Positions 8,361 through 20,773 of a DNA stretch of 64,000 bases are shown piece after piece. The notes under the pieces are model-generated. The model saw only the letters and a program-made list of their open reading frames with translations, had not been told where the DNA came from and did not search any database. The stretch is taken from assembly GCA_004295055.1 (NCBI GenBank), contig SHNJ01000031.1:170898-234897 (forward strand), in the 5' to 3' direction. This stretch comes from Alphaproteobacteria bacterium (lineage in GTDB: Bacteria > Pseudomonadota > Alphaproteobacteria > SHNJ01). A program made the translations under genes and the position numbers. The stretch's first letter is position 1. Each line of letters opens with the position of its first letter.

Positions 8361-9326
8361 ATGGCTAGTTTCTTAGATTTTGAAAAACCTTTATCCGAAT
8401 TGCACGCCAAGGCCGAAGAATTGAAACGCCTGCCAGACGATGGCAGCCGCAATTTGGCCGAAGAAATGGCGCGGATCGATCGCAAAACGCAACGTGTATT
8501 GCGCGCGGTCTATACCAATTTATCGCCCTGGCAAAAAGTGCAAGTGGCGCGCCATCCCGACCGGCCAAGATTCAAAGATTATGTAAAAGGTTTGATTGCC
8601 GATTTCACCCCGCTGGCTGGCGACCGCAATTTTGCCGAAGACCGCGCGATTATGGGCGGGCTTGGCCGGTTCAAAGGGCAGGCGGTTGTGGTAATGGGCC
8701 AGGAACGCGGTTCGGACACGCAATCGCGTTTGGCGCATAATTTCGGCATGCCTAAACCCGAAGGATACCGCAAGGCAATCCGCCTGATGCAAATGGCGGA
8801 TCAATTTGGTCTGCCAGTGATTACATTGGTCGATACGCCAGGCGCTTATCCCGGCATCGATGCCGAGGAACGCGGCCAGGCCGAGGCTATTGCGCGTTGT
8901 ATTGAAATGGGTCTGACCATTAAAGTTCCGATTATTTCAACCGTCACCGGCGAGGGCGGATCGGGCGGCGCGATCGCGATCGCCACCGGCAATCATATTA
9001 TGATGTATGAAAACGCGGTTTATTCGGTGATCAGCCCCGAAGGCTGCGCGTCGATTCTATGGCGCAGCGCCGCGCAAGCGCGCGAAGCCGCCGAAGCCTT
9101 GAAAATGACCGCGCAGGATTTATTGGCGCTGGGCGTAATCGATGAAATCGTCGCCGAACCTTTGGGCGCAGCGCACCGCGCCCCGGCCGAAGCGATTGGA
9201 AATCTATCTGCCGCCATCGACCGCGCGATGCGCTATCTGGGCCAGCAAAATGGCGATCAATTATTGAAATCCCGCCGCGAAAAATTCCTCGCCATGGGCC
9301 GCCGCATTCCGGGACTCGCGAAATAA
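8361..9326 (+). CDS. accA: Acetyl-CoA carboxylase carboxyltransferase alpha subunit
   Basis: FLDFEKP, WQKVQVARHPDRP, NFGMPKPEGYRKAIRLM, GEGGSGGAIAIA, YSVISPEGCASILWR. Confidence 0.97.
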   Translation: MASFLDFEKPLSELHAKAEELKRLPDDGSRNLAEEMARIDRKTQRVLRAVYTNLSPWQKVQVARHPDRPRFKDYVKGLIADFTPLAGDRNFAEDRAIMGGLGRFKGQAVVVMGQERGSDTQSRLAHNFGMPKPEGYRKAIRLMQMADQFGLPVITLVDTPGAYPGIDAEERGQAEAIARCIEMGLTIKVPIISTVTGEGGSGGAIAIATGNHIMMYENAVYSVISPEGCASILWRSAAQAREAAEALKMTAQDLLALGVIDEIVAEPLGAAHRAPAEAIGNLSAAIDRAMRYLGQQNGDQLLKSRREKFLAMGRRIPGLAK

Positions 9327-9339
9327 GTTGGTTTTTCTG

Positions 9340-9367
9340 TTGACAAGGCGCAAGAAATTCATATACT
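9340..9367 (+). promoter_or_regulatory. Sigma70-type promoter TTGACA-N16-TATACT
   Basis: TTGACA 9340-9345, TATACT 9362-9367, upstream of ORF 9403. Confidence 0.7.
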
Positions 9368-9402
9368 GATGGGGATATTTTCTCTTTCTAAAGGATTCTT
9401 CA

Positions 9403-9987
9403 ATGGCCGTATTGCTTGAAAAATCATATAATCCCAAAGGCTTAAATGGTAAAGTTCAAGCTAAGGGCGTAGCTTATGGCCGAGTAATGGTAACGCTGGA
9501 AACACGTTATGGCCCTGTTCGCGGAATCGGCAAAACTCATGATGAAGCGCTTCGTGACGCCCAGCGCAGGAAAAGGGAGCTTGAAAGCGTCAATGACGCC
9601 GAAGCGACCGTAAGATTCAACCGCCTTGTCGAGGAACGGCGTTTGGCGATTTTGGCCGGTGCCGCGCACGGCCGGCGCGAAAAGGTCAACGTGATTTTGC
9701 ACCCGCCACAACAACAAAGATCGCCGCGCGACCGCGTCGATTCGCAAAATCCTAATGGCCGTGCGCATGTACGGTTGCAGACAACCGACGGCCAGGTACG
9801 CATGTTTGTCGCCAAAAATTATAATGCCAGGGAAATCGCAAGTATTGCGGTCAGCACAGGTGTACAAAATATTCGCCCGGCGGCGGATGGTGTAACGCCG
9901 CAAAACGGCGCGGGGATCACAAACGCCGCATTGACGCTCGCCGTTGCGCGCGGATTGGTCTATACCGGTGGCCGCGCCGCCGCTTAG
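9403..9987 (+). CDS. Hypothetical protein (orphan)
   Basis: 194-aa ORF with its own near-consensus promoter and SD AAAGGA; no family recognised. Confidence 0.75.
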   Translation: MAVLLEKSYNPKGLNGKVQAKGVAYGRVMVTLETRYGPVRGIGKTHDEALRDAQRRKRELESVNDAEATVRFNRLVEERRLAILAGAAHGRREKVNVILHPPQQQRSPRDRVDSQNPNGRAHVRLQTTDGQVRMFVAKNYNAREIASIAVSTGVQNIRPAADGVTPQNGAGITNAALTLAVARGLVYTGGRAAA

Positions 9988-10014
9988 ATTTTTCTTTTTT
10001 AACTTGTCAACGGA

Positions 10015-10057
10015 TAAAAATCGGCGTCGCCGACGAGATAGGGGCGTTTGTCATCCT
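10015..10057. repeat. 43-bp direct repeat, copy 1 (duplicate of the 3' tail of ORF 11541-12260)
   Basis: TAAAAATCGGCGTCGCCGACGAGATAGGGGCGTTTGTCATCCT, identical to 11554-11596. Confidence 0.95.
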
Positions 10058-10103
10058 GAGCGTAGCGCAGCGAAGTCGAAGGATCTTTTGAATTGAGAAT
10101 GAC
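10048..10103. repeat. REP/MITE-like palindromic element, family A (right arm truncated)
   Basis: TTGTCATCCTGAGCG...GAAGGATCT left arm as at 20690; right arm reduced to TGAGAATGAC. Confidence 0.75.
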
Positions 10104-10110
10104 GCCTAGT

Positions 10111-10149
10111 AAAAAAACCCGCTGTTTGTACACAGCGGGTTTTTGTTTT
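10111..10149. terminator. Intrinsic terminator (bidirectional-type)
   Basis: AAAAACCCGCTGT stem, short loop, ACAGCGGGTTTTT; A-run and T-run on both sides; just past the stop of ORF 10163-11461. Confidence 0.8.
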
Positions 10150-10162
10150 AAGAATGCAGTAA

Positions 10163-11461
10163 TTATTTACCAACTTTAGTTTTTGGTCCTTTGCCGCCGG
10201 CCAAGCCGAAGGTAAGAATTTTTACCAGATCGAATCTAACTCTATTTCCAGAGGCTGGGGCCGCAACCGGAGTCGATCCATCGGCAGCAGTTGCGCCGTT
10301 TCCTGCCGCTGGTGCCGCCGTTTTCGCAGCAGCAGCCAATGCTGCTTTTTCAGCTTTCAGTTTTCTTTCTTGCGCTTTTTGTCCAATCGATTGCCAGGCT
10401 AAACCCAGTTGAAACTCGCTAAATACTTCACCCGGTACTTTGCCTGATCCGCCAAATTGCTTGATAAGGCCTTCTGCGGCAGTCTTGGCGATTGTAGCCA
10501 CAGTTTCCAGCAAATCTGTCGTTGGTTTAAGGCGCTTTTGCAATGCTTCTTCGGCTTGTTCCGCAGACGTCAATTCGCTTCTTTTGGCTTCTAGGTTTGC
10601 GGCGGCTTGGTCGCCTTTTGCTTTGGCGGCAAGAGTAACGGCGTCCTTGGCGCGATCAACCGTATCTTTTGCTTGGCGCAAAGGTCCGTATACGCTCGCC
10701 TCGGCATTCTGCATAATTCCTAAAATGCCGTTGCTGACGGTGATAATTGCCGCTGGGTCGTCTTTATACAGATGCGGTTTTCCATCTTGTCTTGGCAAAC
10801 GAAGCAAAGCCACCAAGGCATGAATTCCGGTCCAGTTATTCAATTCATTTTTTAATAGAATCGTTCTTAACTCGCCCATTCTTTTGCGAATTCTATCGGG
10901 GGCGGTTGCGCCTTCTTTTGGCGTAGTTCCTTTTTTAATCACTTCGGCTTTGGCACGCCAATCTGTAACGATGGCAGCGGCAAGCTCTCCTGCCACCTCA
11001 GCGCCTTTTAATTCTCTCACTTGTCTTACCAAATTTGGAGCAATAAGAAATGCAACCATTGCAGAAAGCGCTTTTTTGCCGGCATCATTCAATGGGGCAG
11101 GGGCAGTCAGCGTTGCCGGTGTTTCAGGAGTAGTTGCTTCAGGAGCCGCTGTTTCAGTGGTAGCCGATTCAGGGGTAGCTGCTTCCGCAGTAGCAGCAGT
11201 ATCGGCTTGTGCCACAGGTTCTGTTTGTGCGGCAGGTTCCGGCGATGGTACCGGTTCCGGAGGAATGGCGACGGCTTCGGTCCCAATTTGATCTGCGGTA
11301 CGGAACACATTATCAAACACTACCCAGCGTTCGATAGGACTTAATCGCATGGCTTCCACAACCGAGCGAATAATTGCTTCATCCGAAATTTTGGTGGCAA
11401 TATCCAATTCGCCGGCCATATTGGTAATCAAATTTAGTTCAGCCAAAGTTTTTAACGCCAT
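10163..11461 (-). CDS. Hypothetical protein (orphan, Ala/Thr/Pro-rich linkers, helical core)
   Basis: 432-aa ORF, strong SD GAGGAGGA, own terminator; no family recognised. Confidence 0.85.
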   Translation of the reverse strand: MALKTLAELNLITNMAGELDIATKISDEAIIRSVVEAMRLSPIERWVVFDNVFRTADQIGTEAVAIPPEPVPSPEPAAQTEPVAQADTAATAEAATPESATTETAAPEATTPETPATLTAPAPLNDAGKKALSAMVAFLIAPNLVRQVRELKGAEVAGELAAAIVTDWRAKAEVIKKGTTPKEGATAPDRIRKRMGELRTILLKNELNNWTGIHALVALLRLPRQDGKPHLYKDDPAAIITVSNGILGIMQNAEASVYGPLRQAKDTVDRAKDAVTLAAKAKGDQAAANLEAKRSELTSAEQAEEALQKRLKPTTDLLETVATIAKTAAEGLIKQFGGSGKVPGEVFSEFQLGLAWQSIGQKAQERKLKAEKAALAAAAKTAAPAAGNGATAADGSTPVAAPASGNRVRFDLVKILTFGLAGGKGPKTKVGK

Positions 11462-11540
11462 AATGTCCTCCTCATGAAAATACTATGGCCGTGAACATAA
11501 CGAACGTTCACTAAAAAAGAAACACTAATTTTATTTCAAT

Positions 11541-12260
11541 TTAGACTAGGGGGTAAAAATCGGCGTCGCCGACGAGATAGGGGCGTTTGTCATCCTCTAA
11601 CTCATTCCACAATAATCCATAATGTTTTGGCAGGCTCCAGGCTAGGTAATTCATCACATTCTGGAAATCTTGCGGCGCGGCAAAATCGCGCTGTTTTAAC
11701 GAAAATACCAGGTTTTGCCGTGGGCTCATATCCCGGATATAGACCGACGCGACGCCCGGCGTTTGCACGCCCAACTGATTCAGACGGCCGGCAATGTTCT
11801 TCTTTACATAATGGGGTAGGTAATGATCGCTGGGACAGCCGATCATTATCCGCGCGCTGTTGGGCACTTTGAACAGACTTAATTTTTGATCGGCGTCGGT
11901 GCCGATTTGCTCGGCATCTCCGGCACCGCGCGGTTTAAAGAAAAATCCATATTCATGCAGCGACCAGACATCGCCGTAATGCAGAACATAATGGCTTTGG
12001 CCGAAATCGAATACCACGCCGCATCCAATTTCCACCAAATCCGGCAGAATCGATTTGAAATCGGCATCTGGCATCGCGGCCGGGCTGCGAATTGGCAGAT
12101 ATTGCAATCCATCTGGCCCGGTAATCAATTCCGGCTGCAATGGATTTGGTTTTTGCACGGGCAAGCCAAGGATGGCGGATTCAAATTGTTTATACCAATC
12201 GGCATCGCGCGCTGACGTATCGGCGCGTAAAAGACTGGCAATTTGATCCAATATGCTCAT
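11541..12260 (-). CDS. Conserved hypothetical protein
   Basis: 239 aa; GPDGLQYL, YVLHYGDVWSLHEYGFF, IMIGCPSDHYLPHYV and LAWSLPKHYGL resemble an uncharacterised proteobacterial family; no name assignable. Confidence 0.75.
   Translation of the reverse strand: MSILDQIASLLRADTSARDADWYKQFESAILGLPVQKPNPLQPELITGPDGLQYLPIRSPAAMPDADFKSILPDLVEIGCGVVFDFGQSHYVLHYGDVWSLHEYGFFFKPRGAGDAEQIGTDADQKLSLFKVPNSARIMIGCPSDHYLPHYVKKNIAGRLNQLGVQTPGVASVYIRDMSPRQNLVFSLKQRDFAAPQDFQNVMNYLAWSLPKHYGLLWNELEDDKRPYLVGDADFYPLV
11554..11596. repeat. 43-bp direct repeat, copy 2 (inside the coding 3' end, DDKRPYLVGDADF)
   Basis: Identical to 10015-10057. Confidence 0.95.
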
Positions 12261-20685: not shown

Positions 20686-20689
20686 TAAG

Positions 20690-20773
20690 TTGTCATCCTG
20701 AGCCGTAGGCGAAGGATCTGGTTCAACAAAGGCGTTTTGAGGCTGAGATTCTTCGCTTCGCTCAGAATGACAA
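20690..20773. repeat. REP/MITE-like palindromic element, family A (complete)
   Basis: TTGTCATCCTGAGC...GAAGGATCT paired with AGATTCTTC...GCTCAGAATGACAA around a 26-nt spacer. Confidence 0.85.

Follow-up and report, generated by a model that had tools for sequence, protein, structure and literature searches.

A displaced gene end near accA as a candidate scar of homology-anchored illegitimate recombination in an uncultured alphaproteobacterium

An exact direct repeat and a displaced gene end

The locus discussed here lies in a 64,000-nucleotide stretch of DNA (the window, whose coordinates are used throughout) from an alphaproteobacterial genome assembled from metagenomes in 37 contigs (1.95 Mb), and it consists of a conserved gene for a 239-aa protein, the 432-aa gene that follows it, and a short second copy of the 3' end of the former, placed 1539 bp away. 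The open reading frame (ORF) 11541-12260, on the minus strand, encodes the 239-aa protein, and the last residues of that protein (...NELEDDKRPYLVGDADFYPLV, that is, ...DADFYPLV) are covered by one of the two copies of a direct repeat that is exact over 43 bp (10015-10057 and 11554-11596) and reaches 46 bp if one mismatch is allowed. On the minus strand, the distant copy (copy 1) runs on in frame through TAT CCG TTG ACA AGT TAA and ends ...DADFYPLTS* with a stop codon at 9999-10001. This in-frame continuation identifies it as a genuine displaced gene end (hereafter the relic), as had been proposed in a first-pass annotation made by a model from the sequence alone, and the exact repeat on which that proposal was built is real.

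The 43-bp sequence is present in two copies in the whole assembly, according to both a sequence search and a genome-wide repeat scan, and no template for either tail end was found elsewhere in the genome. Between the copies lie a palindromic element, a hairpin terminator, the 432-aa ORF and a 79-nt intergenic region, and nothing else (Table 1). As also observed in the first-pass annotation, there is no recombinase gene between the copies, the 432-aa ORF being alone there; its product has no Pfam or NCBIfam match, and neither has the 239-aa protein or the product of ORF194, the gene that the relic faces. We rejected the relic as a working small ORF or as a read-through extension of the 432-aa gene, as the frame differs and a plausible start is missing. 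An inverted 16-nt match (9332-9347 and 10003-10018) that flanks ORF194 was set aside as chance, about one exact 9-mer inverted match being expected per 700-bp neighborhood.

Table 1. Features of the locus in window coordinates
Feature	Position	Strand	Remarks
accA	8361..9326	+	Conserved left anchor; Pfam ACCA E = 5e-137; similarity to G001/G002 stops at ~9302-9304 (blastn)
ORF194 promoter, sigma-70-like	9340..9367	+	TTGACA, 16 nt, TATACT; 11/12 matches
ORF194	9403..9987	+	Genome-specific orphan gene; missing in G001 and G002
ORF194 terminator	9966..9999	+	Hairpin and T-run; abuts the relic stop codon
Displaced 3' end of the 239-aa gene (relic)	9999..10057	-	59 nt, 19 codons and stop, ...EDDKRPYLVGDADFYPLTS*; tblastn E = 2e-4
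Repeat copy 1	10015..10057	.	Exact 43 bp
TTGTCATCCT	10048..10057	.	10 bases common to the gene (codons EDDK) and the palindrome terminus; putative illegitimate joint
Palindromic element, MITE-like	10048..10103	.	56 bp, short member of a family of ~7-8 copies
Bidirectional hairpin terminator behind the 432-aa gene	10111..10149	.	Similar one at the same position in G001; weak Rfam terminator-type matches
432-aa gene	10163..11461	-	Genus-specific, fast-evolving, helical, with a disordered Pro/Glu/Thr/Ala linker; orthologue of the G002 422-aa and G001 380-aa genes
Intergenic region	11462..11540	-	79 nt, conserved in all three genus members (AATAAAATTAGTGTTTCTTTTTTAGTG and palindrome)
239-aa gene	11541..12260	-	Conserved, function unassigned; target gene; working end YPLV*
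Repeat copy 2	11554..11596	.	Exact 43 bp, within the working 239-aa gene
MITE, miniature inverted-repeat transposable element; G001 and G002, same-genus genomes.

The assembly was checked against Logan unitigs from older runs, built with k=31, a word length too short to trace paths across a repeat of 43 bp. The node that represents the repeat has, in two biofilm runs, about twice the depth of its flanks (13.6 vs ~8, and 30.5 vs ~14), while the 1556-bp middle unitig is covered as deeply as the flanks are and thus gives no sign of extra copies. Copy 2 is spanned by unitigs in X4 (11411-11967), X5 (11364-11732) and X7 (11456-11606), and in an independent river metagenome (X9) a unitig covering 9972-10258 spans copy 1, the palindrome and the terminator with zero differences. 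Because the depth of the repeat node is doubled and unitigs cross both copies, the arrangement is real, and it is common to samples from different habitats and years. A joint skipping the 1539 bp was found in none of 12 runs, in whose unitigs a rare empty or circular form could escape. A unitig of X25 that leaves the locus at 10084 was judged to be a chimeric graph path via a 36-nt core of the palindrome that many organisms share.

The locus in related genomes

Scans of GTDB genomes and JGI metagenomes gave two same-genus comparators for this locus and no further relatives, namely G001 and G002, both metagenome-assembled genomes labeled 'uncultured Alphaproteobacteria'. The gene order tpiA, ppiD, 239-aa gene, 432-like gene, accA, xerD is common to all three genomes. 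The 239-aa protein is 88% identical to its counterpart in G002 and 72% identical to that in G001, and the 432-like proteins, with 32% identity in G002 (422 aa) and 30% in G001 (380 aa), align end to end and have motifs in common. In both comparators the 432-aa orthologue stands at the same place and behind the same intergenic region, which is ~90% conserved between this genome and G002 and contains AATAAAATTAGTGTTTCTTTTTTAGTG in all three genomes, and the 239-aa gene has a single tail, with no second copy and no trace of one. Since the orthologue is in place in G001 and G002 behind a conserved upstream region, the 432-aa gene and its control region represent ancestral synteny in the genus, evolving very fast, and not a recent capture. 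The first-pass annotation had taken the 432-aa gene for a recently captured orphan, and had itself named ancestral synteny of this kind beforehand as an observation that would speak against capture; full-length orthologues at the same position, without any tail duplication, overturn that part of it.

In a profile search of 1.84 billion representative proteins, the 432-aa family was limited to the three genomes of the genus; a word-based search with the 432-aa protein was swamped by low-complexity words. The DNA of this genome and of G002 is colinear by blastn, with ~80% identity from tpiA to position 11459, at the start codon of the 432-aa gene, and ~83% from 9302 at the end of accA, and nothing aligns between 9302 and 11459. 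GC content at third codon positions (GC3) is low in the 432-aa gene (0.39) and likewise low in its G002 orthologue.

Several properties of the 432-aa gene may be mentioned here in their own right. Its neighbors are 72-88% identical across the genus and the gene itself 30-32%, with the DNA similarity to G002 breaking off right at the start codon of the gene. In the 79 nt upstream of it there are a TTAGTG...TTAGTG direct repeat and a palindrome, which is GTGAAC..GTTCAC in this genome and GTTACA..TGTAAC in G001. On these features, the 432-aa gene looks like one that is tightly regulated yet diversifying fast. The predicted structure of the protein is all-helical; the helices are long, and a Pro/Glu/Thr/Ala linker of 70 residues is disordered. 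This is a low-confidence model (predicted local distance difference test score, pLDDT, 54), too poor for a fold search.

More distant relatives offer an older view of the same place. The 239-aa family has nine members in a large protein collection, and in two of the genomes concerned, L012 and L017 (whose family members are 59% and 62% identical, respectively), the 239-aa gene directly faces accA, at distances of 140 bp and 4 bp; neither locus contains a 432-like gene, and in both the sequence has diverged too far for the repeat to be aligned there as a target. As the 239-aa gene faces accA in these distant relatives, the 432-like gene evidently entered behind this gene end at some time, in or before the ancestor of the genus. 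An insertion at the gene tail, as proposed in the first-pass annotation, therefore stands as an event, although not as a recent one.

The slot between accA and the terminator of the 432-aa gene differs from genome to genome. It contains nothing in G001, an unrelated 130-aa ORF (ORF130) in G002, and in this genome a contiguous block (9327-10103) made up of ORF194, the relic and the palindrome, the last of which is missing at the same position in both comparators. A search of 5.8 billion proteins with ORF194 found only ORF194 itself, and a variant strain has it at ~93% identity, with four of the six listed differences at third codon positions. Its GC3 is ordinary (0.54), and the segment 9327-9999 is a complete module of promoter, ORF and terminator. 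The orphan gene gained in this slot beside accA is a different one in each species. The empty form that would be predicted for a captured cassette, with a 239-aa gene ending YPLTS* directly facing ORF194 (9403-9987), was found nowhere, and ORF194 is itself specific to this genome.

Two joints at the gene end

At one edge of the repeat, copy 1 passes without a break into the palindrome. Its last 10 bases (TTGTCATCCT) are at the same time the codons EDDK of the gene and the terminus of the palindrome, which bears out the joint in this terminal motif that had been pointed out from the sequence. The intact gene has these 10 nt as part of its native coding sequence, and at this place G002 and G001 encode EDDK and DDEK, respectively, by other codons. 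The palindrome belongs to a dispersed family of ~7-8 copies in this genome, which are 56-83 bp long, non-coding, and have the ends TTGTCATCC...GGATGACAA; the terminus TTGTCATCC is present at ~7 other copies. Dispersed copies, shared terminal inverted repeats and the lack of coding capacity place the family among MITE-like or repetitive extragenic palindromic (REP)-like elements. No longer element with these ends was found in the genome, and no Rfam family corresponds to the palindrome. Ten bases common to a gene and to the end of another element fall within the 3-10 bp of microhomology known from the illegitimate joints of homology-facilitated illegitimate recombination (HFIR), and to us they look like microhomology of this kind and not like the recombination site that the first-pass annotation had seen in the palindrome-end motif. 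Genome-wide, there is no other duplication anchored at TTGTCATCCT, and none of the other palindrome copies has a gene-end duplication attached.

Two further observations concern the palindrome family. An intact 83-bp member (20688-20770) stands directly behind a gene end (TTGTCATCCTGAGCC...GCTCAGAATGACAA), and the neighboring gene is not duplicated there. The 36-nt palindrome core GTCATCCTGAGCGTAGCGCAGCGAAGTCGAAGGATC (10050-10085) recurs with 0-6 differences in contigs of many other organisms from the same metagenomes, so that the distribution of the family extends widely beyond this genome.

The other edge of the repeat is a sharp switch from identity to divergence. The two tails show 0/43 differences, followed by 7/12 in the adjacent codons (TAT CCG TTG ACA vs TAC CCC CTA GTC; Fisher p = 4e-6). 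Over the same 43 nt, this genome differs from G002 at 8 positions and from G001 also at 8. The YPLT codons of the relic differ from those of G002 at three positions, all of them synonymous third positions, and the working end differs from G002 at four. The two extreme ends look as if they were separated by approximately species-level divergence and as if both had evolved as coding sequence, and the 43 nt of both copies evidently come from one source. Given 0/43 differences and then 7/12, a recombination or conversion boundary must, on the evidence of the sequence, lie at 10014/10015 (equivalent to 11553/11554). A 20-nt block, GTCGGCGACGCCGATTTTTA, ends at this very position. The block shows no difference even in L012, distant as that relative is, but is not identical in G002, and it is a natural spot where a homologous crossover between diverged partners could take place. 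A switch this sharp at a block conserved in the family fits a crossover as well as a conversion boundary, and proves neither.

Identical blocks in otherwise diverged neighbors are found at two other places in this genome, both outside the window. At C4:43769/44404, an identical 78-bp block near the 3' ends of neighboring paralogues that are ~30% identical is followed by diverged last codons; this is the same pattern of identity and then divergence as in the relic and working tails, and probably reflects gene conversion. The paralogues concerned (217 and 212 aa, in tandem at C4:43221-44509, with their last 8 codons diverged) lie just upstream of nuoJ/K/L-like genes. At C1:84895/87016, neighboring paralogues have an identical 71-bp block near their 3' ends; these two genes of 122-126 aa (C1:84849-87341) are 2.1 kb apart, have identical 3'-end blocks of 71, 27 and 26 bp, and each adjoin a gene that begins like an XRE-type regulator, so that the whole looks like a duplicated two-gene module. 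Because such short identical blocks exist in other diverged neighboring paralogues of this genome, a later gene conversion that kept the 43 nt identical is possibly a reasonable addition to the history of the repeat.

We now come to the relic itself, which we hypothesize, with somewhat more confidence than doubt, to be the scar of a homology-anchored illegitimate recombination, in which DNA was spliced in at the gene end by general recombination and without a dedicated recombinase. Under this hypothesis, 9999-10057 would be 59 nt of dead sequence, a displaced copy of the 3' end of the 239-aa gene that stayed behind as other DNA entered at the gene end. The first joint would be illegitimate, made where the codons EDDK (AGGATGACAA) equal the terminal 10 nt of the palindrome and the gene fragment runs into the palindrome, and the second, where the 43-nt block ends on its other side in GTCGGCGACGCCGATTTTTA, would be a homologous crossover or a gene-conversion boundary. 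Either HFIR or a single crossover by incoming DNA that had recircularised at the microhomology could produce such a structure, and either would stack two alternative arrangements of the slot, one in which the tail faces ORF194 and the genus-typical one of tail, intergenic region, 432-aa gene and terminator.

The event could have run in two directions. In the first, the ancestor would have had the genus-typical arrangement plus the palindrome, and a fragment from a relative (accA, ORF194 and a facing 239-aa gene tail) would have been anchored in accA and joined to the palindrome end. In the second, the tail of the ancestor would have faced ORF194, and a 1.5-kb piece consisting of the palindrome, the terminator, the 432-aa gene and a replacement tail would have circularised at the microhomology and crossed into the tail. 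On phylogenetic grounds the first direction would be the better fit, as the 432-aa gene need not have been lost and gained again. The event may be recent, with the 43-nt identity a mark of that recency, or it may be older, with the identity kept by later conversion.

Several points weigh against recombination of this kind. The partner arrangement, a 239-aa gene ending YPLTS* and facing ORF194, was found in no genome or contig, and the absence of any relative of ORF194 among the proteins searched counts on the same side. A sliding comparison of the identity of the flanking genes to G001 and G002 revealed no unusually diverged patch that would mark an import. Moreover, a diverged donor alone would leave the 43/43 identity unexplained, which requires a donor that was near-identical there, or a derivation of both copies from the recipient (from two sister templates), or later conversion.

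Processes of the proposed type have been studied in Acinetobacter, in pneumococcus and in E. coli conjugation (PMC3240628). In HFIR, ~1 kb is inserted, with homologous recombination at one end and, at the opposite one, an illegitimate joint that has a microhomology of 3-10 bp (PMC3240628). In E. coli, when homology was one-sided, most integrants were single crossovers of recircularised DNA, which duplicated 109-950 bp of the homologous segment around the insert (PMC3240628). The locus resembles these systems in having a putative homologous joint and a microhomology joint (10 bp here) with ~1 kb added, and resembles the single-crossover form in particular in that part of the homologous segment is duplicated on both sides of the insert and a dedicated recombinase is not needed. 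However, what we have is one natural scar without an experimental donor and recipient, with the donor arrangement unsampled, and the duplicated segment measures 43 bp, compared with 109-950 bp in the E. coli study.

Events of this kind are known, and the scar is best read as a further example of them, placed in a variable slot where the orphan genes gained differ from species to species. It is unusually legible, with a 10-bp microhomology at the palindrome end and a sharp boundary between identity and divergence in a conserved gene end. It would also provide a concrete example of how uncultured bacteria with small genomes can add orphan genes beside conserved genes without integrases, while the neighboring gene is kept intact.

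Other histories of the repeat

As an alternative to incoming DNA, the relic might have an internal history, in which a second copy of the 239-aa gene, partial or complete and placed between ORF194 and the palindrome (a tandem duplicate, or a long target duplication made when the 432-aa gene first entered, in the ancestor of the genus), was trimmed to 59 nt by a deletion between the 10-bp TTGTCATCCT repeats, with conversion keeping the 43 nt identical. Among illegitimate events, deletion between short direct repeats is the commonest, the block that the distant relatives lack has the relic precisely at its far end, and the identical blocks in diverged neighboring paralogues described above suggest that conversion is active in this genome. 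Insertions with target duplications longer than 30 bp, some of which overlap gene 3' ends, are documented (PMC2853133), and here too a repeat of more than 30 bp, unique in the genome, encloses an insert of less than 20 kb without mobility genes. The likeness to such insertions (Nobusato et al., 2000; Furuta et al., 2010, PMC2853133) extends to a block of a few kb of gene content and to the overlap of the repeat with a gene 3' end, as in the 46-bp cases in Haemophilus influenzae (PMC2853133). By contrast, the gene carried here does not belong to a restriction-modification system, the insert has at one end a palindromic repeat whose joint is a microhomology, and there is no comparator with an empty site and a single copy, G001 and G002 holding the 'insert' without the duplication.

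Neither G001 nor G002 keeps any trace of a second tail, and a dead relic as old as the genus should have decayed, whereas it still reads intact and in frame to YPLTS* and departs from G002 at synonymous positions only. A recent internal duplication, on the other hand, cannot give 7/12 differences beside 43 identical bases. As it also requires more steps, we consider an internal history unlikely, if still worth keeping in view.

A different possibility is the one put forward in the first-pass annotation, a non-autonomous cassette of 1539 bp (palindrome, terminator, 432-aa gene and replacement end) that integrates and excises at the 43 bp. Its recombinase would be supplied by a gene at another locus, and the palindrome end would form part of the site. 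Prophages and genomic islands are known to enter the 3' end of a protein-coding gene and to bring a replacement end, such as e14 or phage 21 in icd of E. coli. As in those cases, the working end at our locus would come from the inserted side, and the displaced old end, with synonymous differences, stands on the far side. The layout is classical for attachment sites of the attL/attR type, with a rebuilt gene end and two perfectly identical copies; at the level of gene order, the distant relatives provide an empty site, and xerD, a tyrosine recombinase gene, is 1.7 kb away. However, xerD and accA form a housekeeping synteny that is conserved in all relatives, and the 432-aa gene with its upstream region is orthologous and syntenic in G001 and G002, which have no second tail. 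Neither the cassette nor the 43-bp sequence occurs at other loci or in other genomes, and other copies of the palindrome lack such a duplication. Depth in the middle unitig equals that of the flanks, and the k=31 unitigs of the 12 runs, in which a rare circle could go unseen, contain no joint that would correspond to excision.

In comparison with e14 and phage 21, there is no integrase, the 1.5-kb content is a single gene that is ancestral in the genus, and neither a second occurrence nor a sign of excision was found. Our comparisons identified no recombinase of the element's own or acting in trans, no empty site in a close relative and no occurrence at a second locus or in a second genome, and a mobile cassette appears improbable. 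The case calls for caution in general, as direct repeats that resemble attachment sites around a gene do not on their own show a mobile cassette, and the gene bracketed here is ancestral in the genus.

It has also been considered whether the conserved last ~40 nt of the 239-aa gene and the palindrome terminus might together act as a landing pad, independent of a recombinase or served in trans, at which a cassette with the hypervariable 432-aa gene and a replacement end is repeatedly swapped between lineages or inserted anew. If this were true, the 43-nt copies would be kept identical by ongoing excision and integration and not by chance recency. The locus can also be compared with the minimal mobile elements of Neisseria, cassettes that vary in content, lie between conserved genes and are exchanged by homologous recombination in the flanks. 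Like them, the locus has a fixed slot, between the 239-aa gene and accA, with species-specific content (ORF194, ORF130 or nothing) beside a hypervariable gene; unlike it, minimal mobile elements normally leave no duplicated gene end, and the slot is known here from a comparison of species and not from exchange between strains. We regard a landing pad as very improbable. A mechanism shared with the 'lodger genes' of the complex I operon in the same window was considered as well and rejected, as there is no comparable long duplication there.

An assembly artefact or a chance similarity has a probability close to nil: the genome is metagenome-assembled in 37 contigs, the palindrome core is common to other organisms in the samples and the X25 unitig leaves the locus inside it, but the repeat node has twice the depth in two runs, difference-free unitigs cross both copies in samples of different kinds and years, which in practice excludes the artefact that the first-pass annotation had allowed for, and an exact match of 43 bp cannot be due to chance.

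Two minor observations concern the 239-aa gene and its end. The AlphaFold model of the protein is moderately confident (pLDDT 65, with the tail below 50) and matches no fold in the PDB. Within the repeat, the conserved block GTCGGCGACGCCGATTTTTA can fold on the minus strand (10020-10034 and 11559-11573) into a 6-bp hairpin followed by a T-run, which may act as a weak terminator at the gene end.

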